A DNA stretch of 64,000 bases from Eledone cirrhosa (lineage: Eukaryota), in the NCBI GenBank assembly GCA_964016885.1, contig OZ024741.1:107694001-107758000 (forward strand), in the 5' to 3' direction. A program made the translations under genes and the position numbers. Shown in pieces: positions 5,822 through 64,000 of this stretch (within the stretch, counting starts at the first letter, position 1; each line of letters begins with the position of its first letter). The notes under the pieces were generated by a model, which saw nothing but the letters and a program-made list of their open reading frames with translations, searched no databases and had not been told where the DNA came from.

Positions 5822-7650
5822 TTACTTGGGGAGAGGAGTACTATCACGTCTTCTATTCCTTCCACTGCGTTTCCTATCCCCTATGCAGTTTGCCCTCTCT
5901 TCGTCTATATTATTACTGGTTCCACCAGGTGTGGTTGCTGTGCACCCAGTGGTATGTGCGTTGGTCTCAAGTCTCCTAGGCCTCTGTCCCCCGATTTCAC
6001 TGTTGGACTTGCTCGGGGCGGCATAGCGCTTACCAGGCGTGTGGGCCCTATCCGTGTCTGCGTTGCGAGTGTTGCTGTTCTTATCTAACTTCCTATTGTC
6101 CCTATTCGTCTTTCTAGCTCTCCTTCCACCTCCCATGGACATATTGTGCGTGATTACAGTGCTGGGCTGGGGTGGCGGGGTGGTGCCGACTGTCTCAACA
6201 TAATGGAGTTTATCTTTGTGCCCTGACCCAGCTAGCGCCTTATTGTAATATTCCGCGTTCGCTTCAAATGCGGTCACGCTGCTAGATAGTCCGCTAATCC
6301 TACTAGATACTCCCTTAACTATTGCTTTGAGGACTGAGCCTGGGTGGTTGGAGTTGGCATTGACGTACGTCAGCCTTTCGTTAGGTTTATGGTACGGTGC
6401 ATATTCTAACTTATCTAGGTCTAGTGTGGCGTCTAAAAAGTTGACTACCTTACTATTTCTATCCATAGTTATTGATAGGTTAAAATTCTTGAAGAATTTA
6501 TAAAGGTCCTTTCTAGTTCTTTCTAGGTTGTGTCGTTTAAAGTCCACAGTAAGCAATGCGTCGTCACGGTATAGCCCACCTCTGAGGTGTGGGAGCTGCT
6601 CGTTGAGCTTCTTGAGCAGGTACAATCCGACGAGGTCTGTCACCTGCGCTGAGTCGCTAGACCCCATAGTGATGTCGAAATTGTTACGAGTGTTCTTGCG
6701 CGTCTACAATTCATCCTCAAATGTGATAATTGTTTTACGAGCGGCAAGGACTATGTCAATCTGGGATCTAGCGAGTCCGCCCGTCCGCATTGCCAACATG
6801 AGCGCCTTATTTAGTAGTATGGGGGATATAGACGTATAGTAGGAGTCTATATCGAACTGGATGAAGCGTAGTGACTTGTGGTTGCTAATGCTTGAGAACC
6901 ACTTTATCACTTCTGCAGTCTTTCCCATAGGTCCAGGCTAATCCTGTCTTTAACTTTCGGTATGACTTCATCTAGTATTTTTTTACTTATAATCCCTATG
7001 TCAGATTTAGAGGGGCTAATGAGCCTGACAGAGGGGCTACTTGCAAAGTCCTCCTTATGGTCTTTCAGTGTGAACCTTGGTTTGCGGGGGGTATAAGGTT
7101 GTGTGCATTTCTCTAATCCTAGCTTCGTTACTATCACTTTAGCCTCCCTGTTAATCTCATCTAGGTTGGCTACAGTGGTTTTTTTATAGTTTTTATGTAG
7201 CTCATTGTATATGAAGCCGCGGTATTCCTCATAGCTCAGGTTGTACATATTCCTAGTCTTGTCCGAGGGTACTAGTATACACTTTCTGTCCTTAAAAGAT
7301 TTAAGTAGTGATTCTAACTTTTTTTGGAAGCCGCTACGCTTACAGTTTTTCCTTTTAAATCTAATAGACCGGACGAGAGACAAAAGGTCACTCTCAAATT
7401 TATCGAGCAGAGGGTTATGGGGCGGGCTCCTAAATGTCCTAAAACCATACTTATTATTCGATGGACTCTCTAGTGGGGCGTTACGGCGCCTATCGAAGTG
7501 AAAAGTGCGCCATCTTATTCTCCTTACAAACGAGTTAACGCTGGTTATAAGCTGCTTTTCATAAGTACCCCTTGGTGGTATGGGTATATTCTTAAGTGAT
7601 AACGGAAGATGGTCCTTTGTCAGCATACTGTCAGTGTATTGAAAAGCCAC
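5822..7650 (-). pseudogene. Naiad-like Penelope-like element RT ORF, disrupted and 3'-truncated before GIY-YIG
   Basis: SLKNIPIP, SDKTRN, TLKDHK, FDIDSYY, MGSSDSAQVTDLVG and LYRDD motifs. A 1-nt frameshift lies at about 6925 and a TAG (probably Trp) at 6704-6706. Confidence 0.9.
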
Positions 7651-7860
7651 CCCAGGGCGGTGTGTTTTTCAGTGAAGGTTAAGCTCTACCGGAGGGAGCT
7701 AAATAAGTAAGATGTATGGTAGGTCGTATGTGAATCGCGATGATCACGTCTGACTTACCAAATATGTGACGGTAGCTAGTTAAGCTCTATGCGTATACGC
7801 AGAGCAGAAATATTAGTGAAAAAGAACAAAGGAACTATTATGACATTATAACAAGTTTAT

Positions 7861-14934: not shown

Positions 14935-15828
14935 GAGGTGTGCCAGAAAAGTTCCAGGGCTGATGTCACATAAGATTTATTTCAAACCCAAACTTCACAC
15001 TAAGAGTTTTCTCCTTCAAAGTAATCCCCCTGGAGTCTAATGCACTTTTTCATGCTTTTGTGCCATGCATGCACTCCTGGAAGGATTCTTCCGGGATCCT
15101 CCTCAGTTCCGTCATCACGGCCTTTTTGATGTCGTCCACGTCTTCAAAACGGGTCTCCTCCGGCTCGTACTCGGAGATCCATGACTATCCCTAGCAAGTC
15201 TGGTGATGACTGTCCCTAGCAAGTCTGATTCGGTTTCAAGACGCTCGAGGATGTCCTGGCACATTGCATGCGTCCACCCTTCTGGTCATCGCTTAGCAGT
15301 TTTGGCACCATCTTCGCGCAGACTTTCCCCATGTCCAAATCTTCAGTGAGAATCTTCCAGACCCTGTCCCGATTCATGCCCAGCTCATTTGCCATCTGTC
15401 GAACAATCAGCCGCCGATCGCTACGCACCATCTGCCTGACGCGCTCAACGTTGACTTCAGTCCTAGTTGTTGAGGACCTTCCGTTCCTGGGGTCATCTTG
15501 CACCACTCAAAAACACGTGAGCGTGACATCGTCTCATCTCCATACACTTGCTGCAGCAATCCCAGTGCTTCTGGCGGAGTTTTCGCCAACCGTACCAGAA
15601 ACTTCAAGTTAGTTCGTTGCACTGTGCTCATTGCTTGAAACAGAGACCTGAAACAGAGGACATGTATATAAAATTATGAAGAAAAAAGTTTGATCGTTGC
15701 AGAGAGCTAAGATTACAGTTACATACTCCAGGAGGATTACTTTGAAGGAGAAATCTCTTAACTGTGAAGTTTGGGTTTGAAATAAATCTTTTGTGACATC
15801 AGTCCTGGAACTTTTCTGACACACCTCG
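14934..15828 (-). mobile_element. Internally deleted mariner (Tc1/mariner) transposon
   Basis: About 100-bp TIRs (CGAGGTGTG.CAGAAAAGTTCCAGG), left end in (TA)n. Frameshifted transposase N-terminus 15631-15216 (QRTNLKFLVRL..QQVYGDETMSRSRVFEW; DDPRNGR; KVCAKMVPKLLS). Confidence 0.9.
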
Positions 15829-44252: not shown

Positions 44253-47200
44253 CAAAGGTTCCAACCCATTTCGGCCAAACGCCCCCTTTTTTCCCTTCGA
44301 AATCACGAAACGCCCCCCCCCTACCCTTTTTTTCCATTTTTCAATATACTACTCATTTTGATATCAGTAGATTACTAAAAAAATGATTAACGATATTCCA
44401 AAGATACCATTGCAGGCAGTTGAAAGTATAAATACATTCCTTGAAAGGAAGTATATAGATTTCAAAAAAAGGAACATAAATGTTCTTTTTTATGAATTAG
44501 GACCAGTTGAATTTGTTATATTCCCACCAGACGATACCAGCTATTTTGAACATTTATACAAGAGCAATTCTGTCTATCCAAAGAGTGCTCTTATCTGGAA
44601 GAAAGTGGCAATTGTATTATTTCAAAGCTTTCCAATTTTCCCTTTAATGAAACGGACAGAATAAATGTTGATATCTAACTTGATGTCCCCTCCGCTTTGT
44701 GACCACGCAAGAGGGTTTTCATGACCTCGTAAGAGGGTATATTCATTAGTAAACGGTAAAATATATAAAACAAATGAGTAAGTGAATTGTGGTAGATGGT
44801 TTCCAGTCCAGTCAGACTGCAACTACAAATAAAAAATCGACTTACTTTGACCTCGTATCAATGGGACCCTTCAGCTTCATGGTCATGGAGTTTAGCTAAC
44901 TCTTTGACGTCAGGCTGGATTTTCGTGAGCTGTAGCCGGAGATCTCCACGTGTAATCACATTGTAGCGGTTGCGAGCCTTACCATGCAGTCTGGAAACAA
45001 CGCCAAACCCCCTCTCGACTAAGTATGAGCTAGGAAAAGACAAAGCAAATCTCTTAGCCTCTGCATGTAGGAGTGGAAATCCAAAAGGGGTTCACCTATT
45101 TTGGAAAATTTCATTTTGATAATGTCATCTGTCTGAAGTTCAATTAATTCTTCCTGAAATTTAACGTCAAAATCGTCGACGTTGGCTATGAAGGGATCTG
45201 CTATCCACATTGGGATGTCCATCTGCAAAAGGTCGACAAACCGTTCTCTCATGTTGTCTTGTAGTGCACGGAGGTGCGCGGTATAAATTTGCAGTTGGTC
45301 ATCGCTCACAATGTTTGAAACATTGGCGACACTAGGAAAATTATAGAATTCCCGTCGACAAAGATTCCTTTCGATGACTTTCAATTTGGCCAGGAATATT
45401 TTTACAACATTCCTTGCTTTAAACAAGGTGATCTTCTCCTCCTGCAAAGCCATAATGAGACTATTGCATTTGTCAAAGATGTCGGCGAGGTAGGCACAGT
45501 CTTGCCTCACATCGAGGTTTTTTTTATATAGTTCTGTGTTGCGTCCCCGAAGAAACTCAATGATAGAGTCGAACAGTTTAAAGAAGCGAGTAAGGCACTT
45601 GCCCTTTGAAAGCCACCTCACTTCAGTATGAAGGAGCAACTCGACGAATTCTTCGTCATTATCTTCGCACAGTTGTCGGAAAATTCGTTCATTGAGGGCA
45701 TGGCGTTTGATATAATTGATGACATCAATGGCTACCTGCAAACACTTGCTCAGCGGCTCGCTGAGTTTCTTCGCAGCCAATTGTTGTCGATGAATGACAC
45801 AATGAACAGCAAATACAGATGGATTTTCCCTCTTTAGAAGAGAGACGAAACCCTTATGTTGGCCGACCATTGCCTTTGCGCCGTCCGTAGCACATGATAC
45901 AATATTGTTAAGAGGTATCTCTTTTACTTCGAGGTATCCCTTGACATATTCAAAGATCGTGGCACCTTTAGTATCTGTTGCTAGATTCAGAGTGAAGAGA
46001 AGCTCCTCGTGCATTTCGTTTTGGTGGAAAAATCGCACGTATCCCAGTAGTAAGGACTGATTCCCGGAAAGTGTGCTTTCATCAAGTTGCAAAGCAAATT
46101 GTGTCGATTTCAAGATGTTGCATAATTGTTGTTCAACATTTTCCGCCATTTCGTCGATGCGTCTCTTTATTGAGTCGTTACTCAACGGAAAACATTTCAA
46201 GGTCTTTAACGGGTTCTGACGTAGTACTGTTGAAAGAACTTCTGAGATGACAGGAGCTACCAATGTTTCACCCAAGGAATGGGGCTGCCACACTTTGCGA
46301 TTATGTTGGCAATATTGTAAGATGCGACAAGTCCATCAACATTTGAAGCTTCAACTTTTGAAAAGGCAGAAGAAATTAGTGTTGTTTTCTGGAATTGGTC
46401 CCTAAGAGACTGAAAGCGTGCTAAATCTTTATATCTCTTATCGAGGTGCCTCACCTCCAGGTGTCTACTGAAACGCGATGGCTTCATCGCCTCATTCGAA
46501 AATGACTCCTTGCAAATTAAACACATGGGTGACAGGTGGTTCGACGGCGATGGGATGAATCCGAACCGTAAGTAATCAACGCTGTACTGCCTGCATTTTT
46601 TCTTCATTGCTGAGGCCATTTTCTGTTTAGCGAATGTGTTTGGTAAAGTTACGCAAAGATTTGCCTATATAAGCCTATAAAATTATGTATAAGGAACTTA
46701 CTATAATGAGTCCTGTTCCAGTATGATAAAGTTTCAAGTAATGTTCTGGAATAACACTTTGTAATAAACAAAACTGCAATGAAAAAGACAAATACTGTCA
46801 TTAATTAACCAAGTCGAGACAAGTTATATATGAAGATTAACCAGTCTTTCATGTAGGAATAGTAATAACTTAGCTTGAGGGAATTAAGGTGGCAGACTCA
46901 ATAAAGGACCAACGAGGCAACGAGTTCAAGAGAACTTAATGCAAGAATGACTAATAATGTGCTATTTTGAAATGGAATTCATCAATTAAGCACGTAGTGA
47001 TAAGACGCGATAATACTAAGTTAAGACATTACTTATTAGTCAGAGTTACTCAAATTATCGCCCTTACCTTAATGCATCACTGTGATATTCTTGTAATGGT
47101 GCTGCAATTATAATGGATGACTGTTGAAGACTATAAAAGCATTTCCTTAAACCCAAGGCTATAACAAGACTTGATCGTAGTATAAACAGTCAGTTTATAT

Positions 47201-50179: not shown

Positions 50180-51307
50180 TTGCGAGGTTTTTTATATGAA
50201 ATCGTGTATCGAAACAAATATTGTTATACTTGGGGAGGGTCATATTTGTGTAATATTGCCAGAATTAATAACAGAACACAATCACTGTTTGGTTGGTTTT
50301 CGCTTCTCGCTTCTGTGTCTTTTATATCGGTAATCTAACTTACTCGCTCCTCAATGTTGCCAAAAAAAAAAAAAAAATCCCTGATCAGCAAAACCTACCC
50401 TTTTAAGAAAACCCACTGTACCAATAGGAAATGTATCATATGTAAAGTAAACCCCCGGATAAACTGTAAAACTAGAAACGTAGTCTATAGCATAAGGTGT
50501 ACAGAGGGTACTTGCAGAAACATGACAACAACATACATAGGCGAGACAGCTCGTAGCATAGGTGAAAGGATAGACCAACACTGGGGGGAACTAAAAGGAC
50601 GAAAAAACGGGTCAGTACTATACGAACATGCTAGACAACAACATGACGGTAACATAGACAACATAGAAATTAGAATAATATCTAAACATAGAAATGACCC
50701 AGCAGATAGGCAAATCAGAAATAGAAATAGAAATATCGAAATAGAAATTAGAAGACCAAGACTAAACAGAAAGAATGAATGGAATAACAACAACACCGAA
50801 ACAAACAACACTGACCAAAGAGAAGTATAAATAAGTAAATAAAATAAAATAAATAAATAAATACATACACAAGCACAATAACAACAAGCACATAAACACA
50901 CACTAGTCACCCATCACACAGCAAACAAAATACTATACACACACGCAAACGCATGCGCAAAGAAGACAAAATAAAATAAACAAACAAGCAAATAAATAAA
51001 TAAATATATAAACAGACTGAATAAAAATGGCGTAGACATACAATACAACAGGAGGAAAAGATAGAACCACTGACGATGTTGCAGATGTGCAAAGAAAGAT
51101 TTATGATAAACTATATATATGTGTTTGTGTCTATATTGTATCTGATTTATTTTTGACCGTCGGTCAGTCAATGGCAACATTGAGGAGCGAGTAAGTTAGA
51201 TTACCGATATAAAAGACACAGAAGCGAGAAGCGAAAACCAAATAAACAGTGAGTGTGTTCTGTTATTAATTCTGGAAATATTACACAAATATGACCCTCC
51301 CCAAGTA

Positions 51308-51700: not shown

Positions 51701-52417
51701 ATATTATGGAAAGGGGACTGCAACAGAGAAGAACTGAAATCCCTTCAACGCTGGGAAAAAAGTGCCGCTTGGTTCCTACACTATGAATCGACTTTTCAAA
51801 CGGATTACACCTCCAATAACCCGTTCATAAAAATAGGAAAACCCATAACTGAACCGCACAACAACTTCTCAAACCCCCAAGCCTCAAACAAACGAAGAAG
51901 GAAGCACCACACCGAAGATGAACTTCCCAACCTCGCTACCATAAGAAGGAACAAAAACCGAAGAAATCATCTCCCCCAAAATGACATTTACAACTTTCCC
52001 CCTTCAAGGAGACACCATACCAAATCACTCAACTACTACGCGGATTCCTCATCGTCAAACATAGGGAAAAGATACCACCGCCATGATAGATGCAACAACT
52101 TCCCCGCTTCAAGGGGACAGCAAGGTAATTACCATTTTCTCAACGCTCACTTCCACAATACACAACAAACCCACACCACACGATACAACCAACAACGTAG
52201 GCAACTTATAACACCACAATACAACATGGCACATAGAAACACACACCCATACTCGCAGTACAGGAACACCCCATTCAATCTACAACCACCAACCCGAACC
52301 ACATTTTACAACAACAAGGAATATAACAAACACAGGAGACCACTTAACATCAGCAGACAACCCCTCTACCCCAACCATTTTTTAGACACAGCACACAGAT
52401 ACAGGCAAACAAAATAA
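51701..52417 (+). CDS. Basic, low-complexity upstream ORF of the PLE (5'-truncated by microsatellite)
   Basis: Open R/H/N-rich frame ending ...PNHFLD...; contains T-TTT-TTA at 52378-52384. Confidence 0.6.
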
Positions 52418-54703
52418 CACAAGACAGGGAGGAGAAACCGATAGTAATAAAAATGATCAATCTTACTAGTGCAGAAACCAACACCCAACCTTATCAACTT
52501 ACTCTCCAAAGGTCTTAAATTCACACCGACCCCACTACGTCCTAACTACTATGAAATGAAGGAAGACATCACAGACTTCTGTAGAAAGTTACGACTTAGT
52601 GAACAACTATTCGACCAGTACAATGAGGATGAATAATTAGCCAGAAATAGAAGCAATTACACCCCTTCAAAAGGTAGAAATAAAATCCTGGACGAATTCT
52701 GTGAACACATCATAAACTTCCCTTACCAACACTTGCACAGACAAAAACACAAGCCAAACCTCAACAAGAAAGAATGGGAAGAATTAAATAGATTAAAAAC
52801 CGACAGAACAATTACAATTAAAGAGGCTGATAAAGGGGGTACAGTAGTCCTAATGGAGACAGAATTCTGTATCAACTTAGCGCTCTCCACTTTGGAAAAC
52901 GAAACATACTACGAAAAGACTGAACACTACAATCAACAGAAATTTATGAGAAACCTAAAAACTCTAATCAACCAATACAAAGAAGGACTCACTAACAAGG
53001 AATTCAGCTTCATCACAGACTACACAAGTAAATCCAGCCTTTTCTACGGTATCCCTAAAGTACATAAAAGCGAATCAATCAGTAAGGCATGCAAGGAAGC
53101 CACAGACATAGTCATCAATGTCCCCTCACCCAATGATCTCAAATTAAGAACTATAATAGCAGGCCCCGCTTGCGAAACGCACCGTCTTAGCAACTTCACT
53201 GATACCCTTCTCAAACCCTTCCTCAAGCACATCAAAAGCTATATAAGGGACGACCTAGATATGCTCAATCACCTCCCTAATATGCCACTTTCTGAACAAA
53301 CCCTACTAGTGACGTTCGATGTAGTCAATCTATACTCCAACATCCCCCACAACCTAGGAATAGAAGCTATCCAATTCTGGCTGGATAATTTCCACAATGA
53401 ACTCCCACAACGCATCAAAAAAGAATTCGTGATAGAGGGACTCAAATTTATCTTGGAGAACAATTACTTCGTTTTCAATAACAAACCCTACAGGCAGAAA
53501 TCTGGGACCGCTATGGGAACGAAAACAGCCCCTACTTATGCCAACCTAGTCATGGGATACCTAGAAATCACCCTCTACACTAAAGTCCTAAACAAATTTG
53601 GAAACACCCTCCACTTACACATTGAAAGGAACTGGAAGCGATATCTAGATGACTGCTTCATCCTTTGGCACGAAAACATCGAAAAACTTAAAGAATTTCA
53701 CACCCTTATAAATGGGCTCAACACAAATATTAACTTCACGATGGAATACAGCCATCAACAACTCCCCTTCCTCGACATCCTCATTAAGATTCATAACAAA
53801 AAAATAGAAACAGACATATACTACAAGCCCACAGACTCCAAGCAATATCTCCCCTTCAACTCTTGCCACCCTAGACACGTTAAAATTAATATTCCCTACA
53901 ACTTAGCCAAGAGAATCTGTACTATAGTCTCCAATAAAAACATCTGCTACTTACGGCTACAAGAACTAAAGGACACACTCATAGGCAGGGACTACTCTGC
54001 ATCACTAATTGACAATGGAATCCAACGTGCCCTAAAACTCAGTACCCAGGACCTTAGACACCCTAAAGTAAATCAACCAAAACTAAAAGCTCTTCCATAC
54101 ATCTCCACACACAACCCCCTCAACAATGAGGCCTTTGACACCATCCTCCAGAACATCCCTGCATTGAAAAAGGACCATAGAATGAACCAAATTCTACGAA
54201 CACACGATATCATAAAGAGCAAAAGACAATCCAAGTCAATGAAAAACATCTTAACACATGCCAAAGTACTGCCAACCACAACAACGAAACCCACAGTAAA
54301 AAAATGCGATAGACCCAACTGTGGCATTTGCATCAACCTAATAGAGGGTTCGGAATTCTATTTCAAAGATGGACAACGTTTTATAGTAAAACACAATTTC
54401 ACATGTGCATCGGAAAATTTTATATATGTATTAACTTGTTCAGGTTGTCGAGAACAATACATAGGCCAGACCCAAAACACCCTCCGCCAACGAATGACTG
54501 TCCATAGATCCCAAATTAAAATACGGGAATACAGGAAAATACCACTGAGTGAACACATTGATACCTGTGCCGCCCAAAATCATCCCAACTTCAGAATCTT
54601 TCCCCTCTACAAATTTAAAGATAATGCCACCCACACCCAGCGCATCAGCAAGGAATCTTACTTCATTAACAAATACGGACCCCGTCTAAACACTTCTCCC
54701 TAA
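52378..54703 (+). pseudogene. Neptune/Poseidon-like PLE RT-GIY-YIG ORF with a 1-nt insertion at about 52480 and one TAA at about 52634
   Basis: MINLTS..LLSKGLKFTPTP, ADKGG, YGIPKVHK, FDVVNLY, GTAMGT, RYLDD, YIGQT, CxxxxCxxC; 52733-54703 is open. Confidence 0.93.
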
Positions 54704-54839
54704 GACGAACCCACAACATACACACGTCAACATACATACCTACATCAGCACACATCTCTACCCACATACAAACACAATGACATACGTAAACACACATGCT
54801 CTATGGTGCAATACAAAAAAATATATGTGCATATATATG

Positions 54840-54876
<37 letters not shown>

Positions 54877-55098
54877 AATATATGTATGTGTATATATATA
54901 TATATAGTGAATATCATTTCACACCTTTTATTGTTAAGATTTTTGATGTTCTATAAAGAGAACCGATTTTACTGAAAAAATCGAATAATGTACACCATTT
55001 TACCAGGGGGAACAAATACTGGTCCACCCACCCACACACACACACACATATATATACACAAACACATACACACGCGTACATCAATATACAAAGAGACT

Positions 55099-55129
<31 letters not shown>

Positions 55130-55226
55130 TTTTCCGTATAAGACAAAAGCTGAAAAATATCTTTTGACATGCTAAAATACCCCCATTGCTTTCAGACACA
55201 TTCTTACTGACCATCCAATTACTCTG

Positions 55227-55304
<78 letters not shown>

Positions 55305-55387
55305 ATCTTAATAGCCATTTGACACACATCGCTCTGGCCATTGTCGCAGCATCGAACACCTTACTACTACTACTACACACACACACA

Positions 55388-55471
<84 letters not shown>

Positions 55472-55487
55472 TATTTGTTGTGAAAGA

Positions 55488-55725
55488 GTCATTTCTCAAT
55501 CTTGGCGCAAAACCAATTTTTATCCACATGACCTCTACCGACCAATCAAAATTGTTTTGACCAAGAATTTTTGCTCGAGCCACTTTTTTAACATAAAAAC
55601 AGTCTTGGCGCAAAATCAACTTTTTACATTCACATGACCTCTACCGACCAATCAAAATTGTTTTGACCACAAGCATTTTTGCAACACAAAAATAACGCTG
55701 GAGCCACTTTTTTAACATAAAAACA
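55488..55725 (+). repeat. About 105-bp tandem duplication with CCAAT boxes in the PLE 3' region
   Basis: tcttggcgcaaaa...gacctctaccgaccaatcaaaattgttttgacca occurs twice. Confidence 0.8.
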
Positions 55726-55943
55726 GGTAGGATTCCCAAAACTAATCAGATCAGAGCAAACAGCACGGACACTCTATCTCAAAATTATTTTTGAAAAGCA
55801 TTTAGAAATGCGCAACCGGTAAAAACTTAAAAAAACTTAAAACCACAACTGAATACTAACCCATACAATCACTAATACTCTTTTATTCCTAATTAAACCA
55901 TTTTTCAACTGTGAACAATTTGTCAGCATTTTCTATTCCGTTT

Positions 55944-56057
<114 letters not shown>

Positions 56058-57349: not shown

Positions 57350-58885
57350 TTAATTAGGTTTATAATATTTAAAGGTTTTTCTCAGTTTGTGATTACACGA
57401 TATTATTAATTCCTGTCGCTTATTTAATAGGATATCCTTAGATTTCATTATTTCAAAAAGTTCTTGGGAACATAATCTACATTCATATCTATTATTTTGA
57501 TAAGAGGTGGCCCTTTTGAGCACACTCCAGGTTAGGTCATAATCTATATTCCTCTTTCTATAATTATTAATTATTTCAGCTAGAGATGTTGTATTAGCTA
57601 GTGCGGCATTTTTAAAGCTATGTTTGTGGGTATTAAATCTTACCTTAAATTTGTTAGAGGTAGCTCCTATATATGAATAAATTGAGTCTTTAGTGTTAAC
57701 TTTACATTTATATACTATGTTATTAACAAGGCAATTTCCTTTTAATGGGCAGTTTGCCTTGTTTCTACAGTTACAACTTGTCGTGAATCCTGTATCCGAG
57801 GAGATATTATGGTTAGTTTGATGTACTGGTGGTGTACTCATGTTTTTTTTACATTTATATGTATTGTAGGCACTTATATTTTGTTTTATGTTTTTGGTTG
57901 TTGAGTAGGAGAATTTAACCGTTGGTCTATTTAAAATTTGATGGTATTTGTGGTTTGGCGGGAAGTTCTTCTCTAGGATATTAAAGAATTTTTTAGGTAT
58001 ATTATCCTTAATTTGTAAATTAAATGGAGCATTATACCAAGTAACTCGTCTATTACGGTTTCGATGTTGTTTATTATTTTTATAGGATGTATCCTGATGT
58101 TTATTAAGAAAATTATTGTTAATGACTTCACCACACACATTTTTAGTTAGATTTATTGATTTAGGTGTTTTAGCTTGTTTATTAGGAGTTTTATTATTAC
58201 CATTTATTAGAGTTGTAGGATGAGTGGTTTTTTGAGAGTTACTATATTGTATATTAGAAGAGTTAGAGAAATTTGGTTTTATGTTGGTATTTTGGGGTAT
58301 AGTGTGAGTGGCATTTAGGTGTGCATGTTTCATTTGGTGTTTGTTGGTAATATTAGGTTGTGTGTTTGTAGTGTTATTGGTACAAGGTATATATACTAAT
58401 TTATTTTTGTGGCCACTTCTAGCTAGAGCTTCGTTATAAAAGGTCGCATTTTTATCAAATACATCCTGGTTAGACGAAAGGTTAGAAATTCTAAAATGAT
58501 ATATTATATGCAAGGTTTTTAAGGATAGATTTAGGGTGATTAGATTGTGAGTGTATGTAGTGTAAATTTTGGTTAGGTTTATGGTAAGGTTGGTAGATAC
58601 CCGTAGATAAGTCTAATGTTATATCAAGGAAATTAACTACTTTACTTGTGTTTTCAAATGTAATATCTAGACTATAATAGTCTTTAAGGAAAGTTCTAAT
58701 AAGCTTCTTATTTTTTTCAATCTCTGAAAGGCTAAGGAAAGAAGAAGACAGTCGTCACGATATAAACCACCTTTAAGGTGGGGAAAGGAAGCATTTATGT
58801 TGAAAAGAAGAAAGAGGCCCACAAGATCAGTAATTTGGGCAGAATCACTTGAGCCCATAGTAATATCGAATAGATTACTATATGT
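57350..58885 (-). pseudogene. Naiad-like PLE RT C-terminus, linker and GIY-YIG, disrupted
   Basis: MGSSDSAQITDLVG, LYRDD, WYNAPF, CNCR..CPLKGNC, IVY..YIG, CRLC..E, LLNKRQEL..SCNH. Confidence 0.92.
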
Positions 58886-59473
58886 GTTTCTGTAAAAATG
58901 CCGCACTAGCTAATACAACATCTCTAGCTGAAATAATTAATAATTATAGAAAGAGGAATATAGATTATGACCTGACCTGGAGTGTGCTCAAAAGGGCCAC
59001 CCCTTATCAAAATAATAGATATGAATGTAGATTATGTTCCCAAAAACTTTTTGAAATAATGAAATCTAAGGATATCCTATTAAATAAGCGACAGGAATTA
59101 ATAATATCGTGTAATCACAAACTGAGAAAAACCTTTAAATATTATAAACCTAATTAATATACATCTTAGAAATTAATATATAAACTATTTTTAATTTAAT
59201 TGACCTATAATTAATATTCTACTACTGATGAACTACATAATTTTACTTTCCTTCTTACAACTATCATTTCCTAAAACTGATACCATTAAGTAATGCTTTA
59301 ATTTCAGGTTATGACTCTATGTTCCTTGAAATCTCTATATATTTATTATAATTTTAACTCCCCCCCCCAATAATTATATGTATGTGTATGTATGTGTATG
59401 TGTATATATATATGTATATGTGTGTGTATATATATGTATATATATATATATGTGTATGTGCATGTGTGTGTGT

Positions 59474-60384: not shown

Positions 60385-60773
60385 ATGAATTTTTTTAATA
60401 TAAGGAACTGCTTCTTTGTTTATTCATTACTTTATTAATTTATCTTGACTCTGTTTTCCGTTAATTTTCACCGAAAATAGTTTTTGAATGCATCTTCTCT
60501 TTTCATGATATCCGGATTACATTGAGTTCTTCATACGGATTGGACACTACCGTAAATTTTTGGTAGATTTATCTACATATATATATATATATATGTATAT
60601 AGATATAGATAGGTAAATATACACGGGTGTGTATGATTGTGTATAGAAGATTATATTAATAAGAGGAATTCTAACTTTGTCTGATTTACTCGTTTTATTT
60701 ACAATCCTTTAAAATATATATAATGGTATTATAATGAAATAGTATGATAGAATATTAAATTCTAAGTGTTAAT

Positions 60774-60812
60774 TGAACAAGTACTTTCATGCTTTCGCAA
60801 TCTTCAGGTTCA
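60774..60812 (-). ncRNA. Minimal hammerhead ribozyme in the pLTR of the 61.2-64 kb PLE
   Basis: Reverse complement: tgaac-CTGAAGA-ttgc gaaa gcat-GAAAG-ta-CTT-gttca; palindromic AAGTACTT. Confidence 0.8.
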
Positions 60813-60934
60813 TGATATGTGGTGACAGTCGAGTTTGCAATTTTCAACTGTAATGAGATGGGTAAATTTCCTACCTTTTATACATTTTATACAGAGAAAA
60901 GTGGCTCCAGAATGCAAAGCCCTGTAAACTGTAT

Positions 60935-61022
60935 TTCGACCAATCAGTGTGTAGTTTCACTGAATTACTACAGCTGATTGGTTTAAGCGTCACGGCTGGT
61001 TGAGCATGCTAACGACCAATAG
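60935..61022. promoter_or_regulatory. CCAAT-box cluster in the PLE pLTR, upstream of the HHR
   Basis: GACCAATCAG, TGATTGG and GACCAAT within 90 bp. Confidence 0.45.
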
Positions 61023-61187
61023 TCATATCCAACGTATCAATTGTTTTGCTTTTTTGAAATGATGAAAATAGCATTTTCTATTAATCATCACCATCAACAT
61101 CACTTTTATTATTATTATTATTGTTGTTGTTGTTGTTGTTAGTGGTCGTGGTCATAGTGGTAGTAGAAGTAATACCCCTAGGCGTTA

Positions 61188-63500
61188 TTATTGTTCATTT
61201 AGCTTGGGTTTGAATTTATCAATAAAATTCTTTTCTTTGATTTTTCTCTTGATTTCACTTGGGCTGTGTAATTTGTAGAATGGGAATATTATAAATATTC
61301 CCTGACCACATGTTGCCAGGTGGCCGCTTAGGGGTATCTGACGGACATTTGGGTCTCTGATTTGTTGACGGTGTACCCGTGCACGTTCCGATAGTGCATT
61401 TCCAGTTTGACCGACATATAGTTCTTCACAATTCGGGCATTTAATGCAGTAAATTAGATTTCTGCTTTTGCAGTTCATATTTGCATTTGTGAATATTTTT
61501 CCAGTTTTTGTTTTCATATATTGACCGGCGTGTATGGATTGACATGTGCCGCATCGATTATCATTGCATTTAGATACAGTGAATGATTGGTCTTTGTTGT
61601 TAAGGTCAAACTTTGCTTTTGTTAGCAATTGCTTCAAATTTTTTGGCTGTCTTTTACTAAGAGTCAAAGATCGATCTGTGATTAAGCCTTTTAATTCATT
61701 ACTTTGAGCAATGATCGGTAGGTTTGCTTTGGCAGTGTTGAAGATATTCTGGTGACATGGGTTGTGTGTCATTATAAATGGTATGACCAGTTCTTGGTTT
61801 CTTCTTCTTTGGGTTGTTCTAAGTTGTTGTATAGGTATTTTTATAGCCCGCTGTATGCCATTTTCTATAAGTAGAGATGGGTATTTTTGTTTGAGCAAAA
61901 ATTCTCTTAGTTCTGTTAGGCGTTTGTACCTGGTATTCGTATCTTCTACAATGGTACAAATTCTTCTGGCTAGGCAGTATGGGATGTTGCGTTTTGTATG
62001 AGGTGGATGGCACGACTTAAAATTCAGATATTGATGGGTGTCTGTGTGTTTATAATATATATCCGTGGTAATGGTGGTGTCGTTTTTGATTATCATTATA
62101 TCTAGGAATGGTAATTTGGTCCTACTCATCTCTTTTGTGAATTGGAGAGATGGGTGTAGGTTATTCAGGAGGATATTGAACTCATCCAGAGTATCTAGAG
62201 ATTCTGTCCAGATGATGAAACAGTCGTCAAGGTATCTCTTCCAAGATTTTTCAATGTACTTTCTAAAGTCAGTACTATATTTTTCCTCTATTTCTTGGTA
62301 GAGTTGTTGTTCTAAGTATCCCATTACAGAGTTCGCGTAAACGGGAGCAAACTTCGTTCCCATCGCTGTGCCTCTAATTTGGATGTAATTCTTTCCATTG
62401 AAGAAGAAAGTGTTGTTTTCCAGAATAAGTTTAACTGCGTCTAATATAAATGGCGCTGTGAATCTAATGGGAATCACTTCTCTATGTTTTTCCACCCAGT
62501 ATTTAACCGCCTTTATTCCTAAATCATGTGTAATGTTGGTGTAAAGGCTTACCACATCAAAACTGAGTAGAAGTGAATTCGTTTCCGTGGTTTTGGGAAG
62601 ATGGGACAGGAAGTCGATATCATCCCGGATGAAACTGGGTATGTGAATACATAGTGGTTTCAAAATAATGTCAACAAAATTGCTTAGACGGTGAGTGGGG
62701 CATGTTGGACCAGCTATAATAGGTCTAAGTTTTAAGTCTTTTGGGTGTAATAATTTAATGTACTCACTGTTTTGTTCTCTTACTGCCAGTTGTATTTCTT
62801 TTGACTTGTGAACTTTCGGTAGGCCATACAGGTTGCTGGGTTTCGGCTCAAAATTGGTGATGTAGTCTCTTTCCTTATCAGTAAATGAGTTGTGGTATTT
62901 TGAAGCCAGGTTGTTGATCTTCTTCATGATGTTGTGGTCTATATTTGACGGTATTTCATGATAGAATGTTGTGTCTTTCAGTTGTTCCTCAACCAAATCC
63001 TTGTAGTATTCAGTATCCATTATAACAACTGCACCCCCTTTATCTGCTTGTTTAATTATTATTGTTTTGTCATTTTGTATACGTTTAAGTGCAGACATTT
63101 CTGATTTGTTAATGTTTGGCCTAACATTAGTATTATGTCTAAGAGGAAATTTAGACAGGATGTCAATGTATTGGTCGAGATAGATATTTCTTCCTTTTGG
63201 CGGAGTGAAATTTGATTTATTCTTTACTAGTGATTCATCACTCTCATTATTTTTATCAGCGAAGAATTCTACAAGACGTAATTTTCGACAGAATTCTTGG
63301 GTATCCTCCTTCAGTTCTTGGTGGTTGACTGTTGGAGTCGGTGTGAATTTCAGTCCTTTTGACAGAATTTGCATTTCATCATTGTCAAGATCTCTTTTAG
63401 ATAAATTAATTATTTTAGGATCTACGTGTACAGCTGTTTTGGGTATGTTTCCTCCTGGAGTTTTTCTTTTTCCGGTTTTTGTTGTCCTGACGTTAAAAAA
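61188..63500 (-). CDS. Intact Neptune/Poseidon-like PLE RT-GIY-YIG ORF
   Basis: Frame is open from the slippery site at 63500 through IINLS..LSKGLKFTPTP, ADKGG, YGLPKVHK, FDVVSLY, GTAMGT, RYLDD, LIY..YVGQT to the stop at 61188. Confidence 0.95.
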   Translation of the reverse strand, partial: FFNVRTTKTGKRKTPGGNIPKTAVHVDPKIINLSKRDLDNDEMQILSKGLKFTPTPTVNHQELKEDTQEFCRKLRLVEFFADKNNESDESLVKNKSNFTPPKGRNIYLDQYIDILSKFPLRHNTNVRPNINKSEMSALKRIQNDKTIIIKQADKGGAVVIMDTEYYKDLVEEQLKDTTFYHEIPSNIDHNIMKKINNLASKYHNSFTDKERDYITNFEPKPSNLYGLPKVHKSKEIQLAVREQNSEYIKLLHPKDLKLRPIIAGPTCPTHRLSNFVDIILKPLCIHIPSFIRDDIDFLSHLPKTTETNSLLLSFDVVSLYTNITHDLGIKAVKYWVEKHREVIPIRFTAPFILDAVKLILENNTFFFNGKNYIQIRGTAMGTKFAPVYANSVMGYLEQQLYQEIEEKYSTDFRKYIEKSWKRYLDDCFIIWTESLDTLDEFNILLNNLHPSLQFTKEMSRTKLPFLDIMIIKNDTTITTDIYYKHTDTHQYLNFKSCHPPHTKRNIPYCLARRICTIVEDTNTRYKRLTELREFLLKQKYPSLLIENGIQRAIKIPIQQLRTTQRRRNQELVIPFIMTHNPCHQNIFNTAKANLPIIAQSNELKGLITDRSLTLSKRQPKNLKQLLTKAKFDLNNKDQSFTVSKCNDNRCGTCQSIHAGQYMKTKTGKIFTNANMNCKSRNLIYCIKCPNCEELYVGQTGNALSERARVHRQQIRDPNVRQIPLSGHLATCGQGIFIIFPFYKLHSPSEIKRKIKEKNFIDKFKPKLNEQ

Positions 63501-64000
63501 TGAATTTTTCTCTGTTCAAGATTTATATTCCTGTTGGTGTTCGCTTGATGAACTTTTGGTCGTGATATTATATTTGGTTTCGTTATGTATTTTGTCCTAT
63601 TTTTGGTATTCTGTATATTATTTTTCTTCCTGCTAGCATTATTTTTAACAATCTGGGAAAATGACCTAGGTTTGCTTTCAGGTTTAGATCGTTTTTTCGT
63701 CCAGTTTCTTGTGGGCAATCTCTGTTGAGATCTTGAGAGTGATCTGGTTATTCTACGTTTTGTTTCCACATTCCTTGTTGGTAGTCTCTGTTGAGATCTT
63801 GAGAATGATCTCCTGGTTTTACTACTTCTCATGGTCTGGTCAAAGGAATACCTATCGTGTTTGTGCTTTTTGTTCATGTTGTGTGCGATAGGGTGTTTTT
63901 GTAGAAAAAGCGAAGAGTTATTACCGTAGTTCTTCTTTGATTCAAGGTAAGGTGAGTGTTTGTGTTGGCACGTGTTCTGGCGTATGTTGTGTTGATGAGA
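63422..64000 (-). CDS. Arg/Ser/Lys-rich upstream ORF of the PLE; runs off the window edge
   Basis: No stop from 64000 to 63425; 22-aa repeat RS.SRSQQRLPTRN; ends ...KIHFLT... Confidence 0.7.
   Translation of the reverse strand, partial: SHQHNIRQNTCQHKHSPYLESKKNYGNNSSLFLQKHPIAHNMNKKHKHDRYSFDQTMRSSKTRRSFSRSQQRLPTRNVETKRRITRSLSRSQQRLPTRNWTKKRSKPESKPRSFSQIVKNNASRKKNNIQNTKNRTKYITKPNIISRPKVHQANTNRNINLEQRKIHFLTSGQQKPEKEKLQEETYPKQLYT

Follow-up and report, generated by a model that had tools for sequence, protein, structure and literature searches.

How does a mobile element make its reverse transcriptase (RT) when the RT lies in a different frame from the open reading frame (ORF) that precedes it? 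The question was raised by a 64,000-nucleotide (nt) stretch of Eledone cirrhosa DNA (contig OZ024741.1, positions 107,694,001 to 107,758,000; hereafter the window), which carries two Penelope-like elements (PLEs): the 52 kb element on the forward strand (family A) and the 63 kb element on the reverse strand (family B). In both, an upstream ORF (ORF1) is overlapped by an RT-endonuclease ORF in the -1 frame, and a T TTT TTA heptamer lies in the overlap. We propose that a ribosome would slip back one base on U UUU UUA to give an ORF1-RT-endonuclease fusion. The trigger would be a ribosome that pauses ten codons further on, at the ORF1 stop (52415 in family A); the next ribosome would be held with Phe-Leu in its P and A sites and would slip there. 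The outcome would be an abundant ORF1 protein and a rare fusion, in gag/gag-pol fashion. Judged from sequence, -1 ribosomal frameshifting at the heptamer is very probable, be it with or without a collision trigger, while the whole chain, including its trigger by a ribosome queue at the ORF1 stop, comes close to an even chance. The parts of the two elements in the window are as follows (+, forward strand; -, reverse strand).

51703..55954 (+): family A PLE, 5'-truncated, between (TA)n tracts; 98.7% identity with young sisters
51704..52417 (+): family A ORF1, 3' part, with the final 237 of its 436 codons and the stop; the window copy lacks the 5' portion of the gene
52378..52384 (+): family A putative slippery heptamer T TTT TTA (His-Phe-Leu in the ORF1 frame)
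52385..52414 (+): ten double-coding sense codons from the slippery Leu to the ORF1 stop; no stable hairpin predicted
52415..52417 (+): family A ORF1 stop TAA, in the same place in 30/30 copies read; proposed roadblock site
52378..54703 (+): family A RT and GIY-YIG endonuclease ORF, -1 frame, interrupted by a private extra base and a stop
52475..52477 (+): family A run of A with one private extra base
52634..52636 (+): premature TAA within the RT frame of the window copy of family A
55547..55954 (+): family A 3'-terminal segment, resembling a pseudo-long terminal repeat (pseudo-LTR); recurs directly upstream of ORF1 in full-length copies
63422..64000 (-): family B ORF1, 3' part (449 codons in total, the start lying 771 nt past the window end); a gap of 23 codons separates the slippery Leu from the TAG stop
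63494..63500 (-): family B putative slippery heptamer T TTT TTA, followed by AC (no AG)
61188..63500 (-): family B RT and GIY-YIG ORF, -1 frame, unbroken
60591..61098 (-): family B 3'-terminal segment, pseudo-LTR-like; repeated upstream of ORF1 in full-length copies

The heptamer at the ORF1-RT junction

In family A the junction reads CAT TTT TTA GAC from 52376, with the heptamer at 52378-52384, and the -1 frame continues as FFRHSTQ..KMINLTS. Family B has the same junction in the same phase (CAT TTT TTA AC at 63500-63494, reverse strand), with no AG behind it. In both, an X XXY YYZ heptamer stands in phase inside the ORF overlap, as in canonical -1 programmed frameshifting. These two sites had been picked out in the original prediction, which also held that removal of one extra base from the family A copy would restore an 11-residue spacing between two RT motifs. 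We found this to be correct. The window copy has three A at 52475-52477; each of the 29 sisters read is one base shorter there, which makes the indel private to the window copy. The -1 frame of the sisters is open from the heptamer onward across INLTS and LSKGLKFTPTP, and the two motifs keep their 11-residue spacing. The genome search for family A (1617 candidates, 40 scored) returned 600 nt against the 601-nt query in all 39 non-self rows, and a copy sharing the extra base would rank top. Contigs from a related organism lacked it as well; they had no listed difference over 52354-52421, with 5 directly before this interval and 14 directly after. The Met of KMINLTS turned out to be a minority allele (3 of 30 family A copies), which corrects the original reading.

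Other copies proved to carry the motif, a point on which the original prediction had staked its reading. Of 367 family A matches, the first 100 listed included 88 with T6A; for the 162 family B matches the corresponding figure was 97 in the first 100 listed. When loci in the same genome were chosen by RT motif alone, covering several further families, T6R was found 95-145 nt upstream in 30 of 48, with 25 in phase, and two control windows gave 0 and 0; by our reading of the output, the 18 loci without T6R comprise nine that are 5'-truncated and nine with a damaged run. We also examined 68 loci with an RT N-terminus from metagenome and genome-bin contigs. In the RT tree, which was built on a rough, query-anchored alignment of unnamed loci only with no named reference Neptune, 15 tips grouped with A and B, mostly at 30-52% identity (73-79% for families A, C and C2). 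T TTT TTA or T TTT TTG was in phase in 13 of these 15, located at the terminus of an ORF1 that is homologous or seen in part; the remaining two have A AAA AAC or C AAA AAC. These two (L098:1-170 and L119:1-70) are a sister lineage within the clade, in which A AAA AAC or C AAA AAC replaces T6R at the ORF1-RT overlap.

All 13 scored junctions have a T-ending codon ahead of Phe, with TTT for Phe and TTR for Leu, even though the residue ahead of Phe varies (H, D, N, R, Y, P). The codon-usage odds product over 12 junctions was ~1e-13, a value that is indicative only, the set including L186 (outside the clade) and related families. At the protein level, an ORF1 profile matched 1061 clusters at 50% identity. 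Among the best 150 of these (the longest <=706 amino acids, aa), 45 were dropped as too short behind the core, and 105 were kept with a tail of >=70 aa. FL was found within the last 40 aa in 80 of the 105 cluster representatives, as against 4 of 105 in the preceding 40. The residue before FL was K, E, Q, M or W in 0 of 80 (background 19%, naive P 3e-8); it is always codable by NNT, as X XXY YYZ demands, unlike a peptide motif.

The upstream ORFs had been thought dissimilar apart from HFL. This did not survive comparison of full-length copies, where ORF1 of family A and ORF1 of family B are 30% identical over 242 aa (first 245 residues, E 3e-28). They seemed unlike because the A copy is 5'-truncated and the B ORF1 runs beyond the window, and the unlikeness is confined to the disordered ORF1 tails visible inside it. 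Since the two ORF1s are homologous, the heptamer would be inherited and not convergent, and we rejected convergence of unrelated ORF1s on this ground. The site was nevertheless kept while the flanking sequence turned over, which still argues for selection. A chance indel or an assembly error was also rejected, because T6A is kept in copies of both families and at motif-chosen loci and the extra A is private. Taken over the tree tips (13/15), the proteins (80/105) and the own-genome loci (30/48), conservation supports the original proposal of selection on a recoding signal, and marks the heptamer as a real feature under selection, retained clade-wide.

Splicing would offer another way across the junction, with T6AG as a 3' splice site and an intron joining the ORF1 core to the RT frame. 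AG does follow the T run in family A and at most DNA junctions, the codon of the next residue starts with G in 54 of 80 proteins, and a Mytilus gene model (P0117, 'Hypothetical predicted protein', a prediction of unstated basis) joins the ORF1 core to the RT past the junction. We nevertheless regard splicing as highly improbable, for AG is absent in family B, L117 and L165, and so is not common to all members, and 26 of 80 next residues have no G-starting codon. The run is six T in a fixed ORF1 phase, and no junction has CAG, the commoner 3' splice acceptor; an acceptor would fix neither the ORF1 codon phase nor the stop distance. The site is also spanned, without a joint, by contigs whose source runs can only be guessed to be RNA, which is weak evidence; no RNA data set was listed as carrying the element.

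It is extremely unlikely that RNA polymerase or RT slippage on the T run adds a base and so fuses the frames in RNA or DNA. Six T is short for polymerase slippage, and codon phase and stop distance would be irrelevant to it. Frame-fusing T7A alleles were indeed seen in 5 of the first 100 listed family A copies; these five are scattered over different sub-lineages and form no clade, and family B had 0 length variants in its first 100 listed. We also considered an amplifying in-frame fusion subfamily, and rejected it in view of the scatter of the T7 copies and of L085, a single family A copy with ORF1 and RT in one frame via a one-base insertion upstream of the heptamer.

The RT frame opens merely 10 codons (A) or 5 codons (B) 5' of the heptamer. 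In families A and C its first AUG is found 59-60 codons past the heptamer, behind the INLS and KGLKFTPTP motifs, so plain initiation would truncate the RT. Separate RT synthesis, whether ribosomes reinitiate past the ORF1 stop or start at an internal AUG or near-cognate codon, is very unlikely: in A, C, L091, L117 and L165 the conserved N-terminal RT motifs come ahead of any AUG, and both the heptamer and an RT frame open back to it would be left unaccounted for. Such synthesis would fit the old families D, E and F, which have an RT-frame AUG 12 codons past the heptamer, overlapping codon 11 (families A and C have AUA there), and a distant group that uses an ORF1-stop/AUG overlap.

Distance from the heptamer to the ORF1 stop

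A -1 slip at the heptamer is likely. A stable stem-loop, as in canonical -1 frameshifting of the HIV/coronavirus type, was not found in families A, B and C, where downstream folding gave 0 to -3.6 kcal/mol (ViennaRNA, with pseudoknots outside its model). No stimulatory 3' hairpin was shared among 16 junctions, and z was < -2 in 1 of 16 (L095). Given the weak local pairing predicted, a pseudoknot in A and C is unlikely.

What these junctions do have is a constrained distance to the ORF1 stop, an addition beyond the original prediction. We counted the codons between the slippery Leu and the stop. None of the 80 proteins had a distance of <10, and in 28 of them it was exactly 10. The stop hazard was 0 at codons 0-9, 0.35 at 10 and ~0.07 from then on; the null, taken from the same frame in RT-coding DNA, was 0.55 below 10 and 0.039 at 10. 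Positions 1-10 after the slippery Leu hold 48 Y, W or C but no stop. The distance is also 10 in families A and C and in L097 and L117 (DNA), and in a later independent match (P0272). The 28 ten-residue tails have 9.8% identity, and their cores a median of 27%. Of 12 sister pairs that include a 10, 8 keep the exact length, compared with 2 of the 16 other pairs (P 0.005).

A spacing of this size has a precedent in E. coli reporters, where the accessible text of PMC6815119 describes a slippery heptad 8-10 codons before a slow stop, at which the trailing ribosome slips -1, with a peak at 9. In yeast, a 10-codon gap is the minimal separation of collided ribosomes, and in human cells disomes are enriched at stop codons (bioRxiv 10.1101/2023.02.01.526718, available part). 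A putative slippery site one collided-ribosome gap 5' of the proposed stall site was found in A, C, L097, L117 and 28/80 proteins, and not in B or 52/80.

Several points weigh against a collision trigger, or against the evidence on which it is built. The precedent for collision is bacterial and synthetic, and according to the same part of bioRxiv 10.1101/2023.02.01.526718 disomes of terminating ribosomes are often longer, near-collided and looser than 10 codons. The stop distance is >10 in 52 of 80 proteins and 23 in family B; among other DNA junctions it is 12 (L091, L099), 17 (L092), 19 (L165) and 79 (L186), and in L095 the stop follows after 1 codon. Gaps of 14-18 fit no simple queue, nor does a queue account for gaps that may lengthen but not shorten. 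The 10-class is clustered on the tree (10 changes vs 23 shuffled) and occurs in 9 of 27 lineages at 40% identity and 3 of 12 at 35%, with up to 13 of 41 by threshold. The naive P values thus overstate the case, and the clustering means long retention and not 28 origins. In addition, 25 of 105 ORF1 proteins have no FL in the last 40 aa, the test on the 80 proteins is at protein level only, and pseudoknots and long-range pairing lie outside the folding model.

The same heptamer could also be used without any collision, as a bare site or with a cryptic RNA, protein or nascent-peptide stimulator, the spacing being inherited or kept for another need such as a minimal ORF1 tail. All the evidence of heptamer conservation fits this too, and 52 of 80 lineages manage without the 10-codon gap. 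Families A and C agree at 27 of the first 30 nt from the heptamer, compared with 76% overall, and this stretch might be a sequence element. Frameshifting of this kind is a serious possibility, if one that we would not call the probable one. It does not account for the sharp lower limit of the stop distance or for its spike at exactly 10, given that the tails are unrelated. A conserved hydrophobic RT residue that creates stops at codon 11 as a by-product was considered as the cause of the spike and found no support (T-starting codons 11/52 vs 16%, P 0.34).

For a collision at the ORF1 stop, the context of termination is of interest. No consistent GA-rich run, the slow-termination motif taken from the available part of PMC13341110, was found before the ORF1 stop. 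The base after the stop is C in 4 of 6 DNA cases, and downstream bases had little effect on termination in that same part of PMC13341110. The hazard rises again at 20-23 and 30-32, as longer queues would have it; we make no claim of this, as the cases are few, the lineages are related and the 40-aa search window inflates late values.

Two further observations were made at these tails. Codon 11 is TGG (Trp) where others stop in L225, L236, L237, L259, L262 and L264 and in the proteins P0002, P0130, P0132 and P0141. In the DNA cases an AUG thereby arises in the RT frame at codon 11. Of the four proteins, three have their stop after exactly 20 codons. Secondly, with a 10-codon tail the Phe-Leu pair (52379-52384) is placed inside the exit tunnel of the ribosome that terminates, at a depth of 11-12 residues. 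Known arrest peptides act at about such a depth, and it is a speculative thought that Phe-Leu might slow termination from there.

The elements, their ORF1 and their neighbours

The RT domain matched RVT_1 with E 1e-6 and 3e-6 in the two families, just short of the curated cut-off, and the YLDD and GTAMG motifs are present. A C-terminal GIY-YIG domain (PF01541) scored above the cut-off in families A and B. The linker between RT and endonuclease (CDRPNCGIC and CNDNRCGTC, the CX4CxxC form) fits CX2-5CxxC, which marks Neptune/Nematis-type elements in the available text of PMC8557442. Full-length copies have a repeat of their 3'-terminal 400-500 nt ahead of ORF1, and the flanks are (TA)n. By these domain, linker and terminal-repeat marks, families A and B are classed as Neptune/Nematis-type endonuclease-bearing PLEs. 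No hammerhead family was found in Rfam scans at E<=1, which minimal hammerheads may escape.

All these traits, from the PLE-type RT and C-terminal GIY-YIG to the linker, the (TA)n flanks and the terminal segment repeated at the 5' end, are shared with the Neptune/Nematis-type elements described in that part of PMC8557442. Endonuclease-bearing PLEs are called single-ORF there, as they are in the accessible parts of PMC3846280 and PMC6431247. The present elements do not follow this canonical plan: a separate ORF1 of ~430 aa stands in another frame, and does so in a large clade.

ORF1 measures 426 codons from Met to the Leu of HFL in full-length copies of both families, with totals of 436 (A) and 449 (B). 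This length is identical in L013:458-1735 and L032:530-1807 despite unrelated tails, which may be chance. The closest named relatives are mollusc proteins, and an Octopus protein is 70% identical to ORF1. The structural model is all-helical and confident (predicted local distance difference test, pLDDT, 87), and ORF1 is predicted to consist of an all-helical coiled-coil core with a basic disordered tail. We found no common Pfam family and no Atlas hit, and structure searches matched generic helical bundles only; these searches establish neither a novel fold nor a function. ORF1 would probably package the RNA. We dropped the notion that ORF1 arose when the N-terminus of a single-ORF PLE was split off, as the ORF1 profile gave no significant match to single-ORF PLEs or to the ORF1 cores of other groups. 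No relative was found in the viral contigs searched.

Other PLE groups have other junctions. In a distant group (28-31% RT identity; L147, L149, L150, L154, L155, L160, L163, also L159 and L171), ORF1 ends at G GGT TTY in -1 phase. The stop comes 0-2 codons later in the first seven of these, and the group has a common GGACAGGC-like motif ~9 nt downstream. Hairpins were predicted there for single sequences, and the alignment fold was without covariation. In another PLE clade (L108, L110, L111, L114, L116, L123, L124), the ORF1 stop overlaps or adjoins an RT-frame AUG (ATGA type), which suggests termination-reinitiation. Because T6R-type, G GGT TTY-type and ATGA-type junctions all occur, there appear to be at least three modes of ORF1-RT coupling among PLEs, in addition to single-ORF forms. 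Many contigs among L165-L223 in bins labelled bacterial carry animal-type Penelope elements, likely as host carry-over.

The window holds further fragments. A lone piece of the family A terminal/5' segment, 99% identical and partly inverted, was seen at 1755-2023. By eye, 5822-7668 (-), 57350-59157 (-) and 50339-50830 (+) resemble other PLE fragments (RT pieces, endonuclease tails); no Pfam match was found for such fragments in the four frames scanned. Open frames at 45019-46664 (-) and 15216-15506 (-) resemble, also by eye, hAT-type and mariner-type transposase fragments.

Known systems and consequences

HIV-1 gag-pol has the heptamer U UUU UUA with a stable stem-loop directly downstream. It shares with the Eledone elements the use of this heptamer between a structural ORF and an RT ORF, while the HIV stem-loop has no counterpart in families A, B and C. 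The site thus resembles that of gag-pol -1 frameshifting, yet lacks the hairpin of the canonical type. Among PLEs, a frameshifted ORF1 is presumably a trait of the endonuclease-less Athena elements. The legend to Fig. 1 of PMC8557442 states that some ORF1 are set apart by a frameshift and a pseudoknot; the clade is not named in the available text and may include Neptune, and a search of the supplement for the terms 'slippery' and 'pseudoknot' found neither. A coiled-coil ORF1 parted from the RT by a frameshift is common to those elements and, by prediction, ours; a pseudoknot is named in that legend, whereas here there is no predicted hairpin and the stop distance is constrained.

With the E. 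coli collision reporters (PMC6815119, accessible text), our junctions share a heptad one ribosome length before a stop and no need for RNA structure. The reporters are synthetic and bacterial and peak at 9, whereas the present sites are natural and eukaryotic, have their mode at 10 and are known from sequence alone. SARS-CoV-2 1a/1b, as described in the available part of PMC8168617, is pseudoknot-driven, and the proposal for its stop 5 codons on is that it removes ribosomes and thereby lets the RNA refold, which is the opposite role. A killifish Neptune has an unexplained ORF1, with no frameshift reported in the accessible text (PMC12602865), and esterase ORFs occur in Neptune-like elements (PMC5408684, in part). 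The word 'frameshift' is absent from the available part of bioRxiv 10.64898/2026.07.22.740005. In a 2021 review (PMC8310308, accessible text), the reporter study and a mutant herpes gene are the only cases cited for frameshifting enhanced by collision, and the available parts of PMC8915115 and PMC7544508 add no natural case. Our literature search found no description of a slippery site in Neptune-type elements, of the stop spacing or of a natural stop-codon-collision frameshift; key subscription papers and the repeat databases (Repbase/Dfam) were outside its reach and may mention the site.

Our broadest suggestion is a tentative one, not quite evenly balanced: that in a widespread marine-invertebrate PLE clade programmed -1 frameshifting is naturally stimulated by a ribosome that waits at the ORF1 stop, exactly one collided-ribosome length past the heptamer, and not by an RNA structure or a protein. 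If so, RT output would scale with ribosome traffic and termination speed, and the clade would provide a natural case of collision-driven programmed frameshifting, with hundreds of natural spacing variants. Even without the trigger, a large group of endonuclease-bearing Penelope elements would have a gag/pol-like two-ORF plan. Gene models started at an AUG lose the conserved N-terminal RT motifs, so the annotation and expression of these RTs should change.

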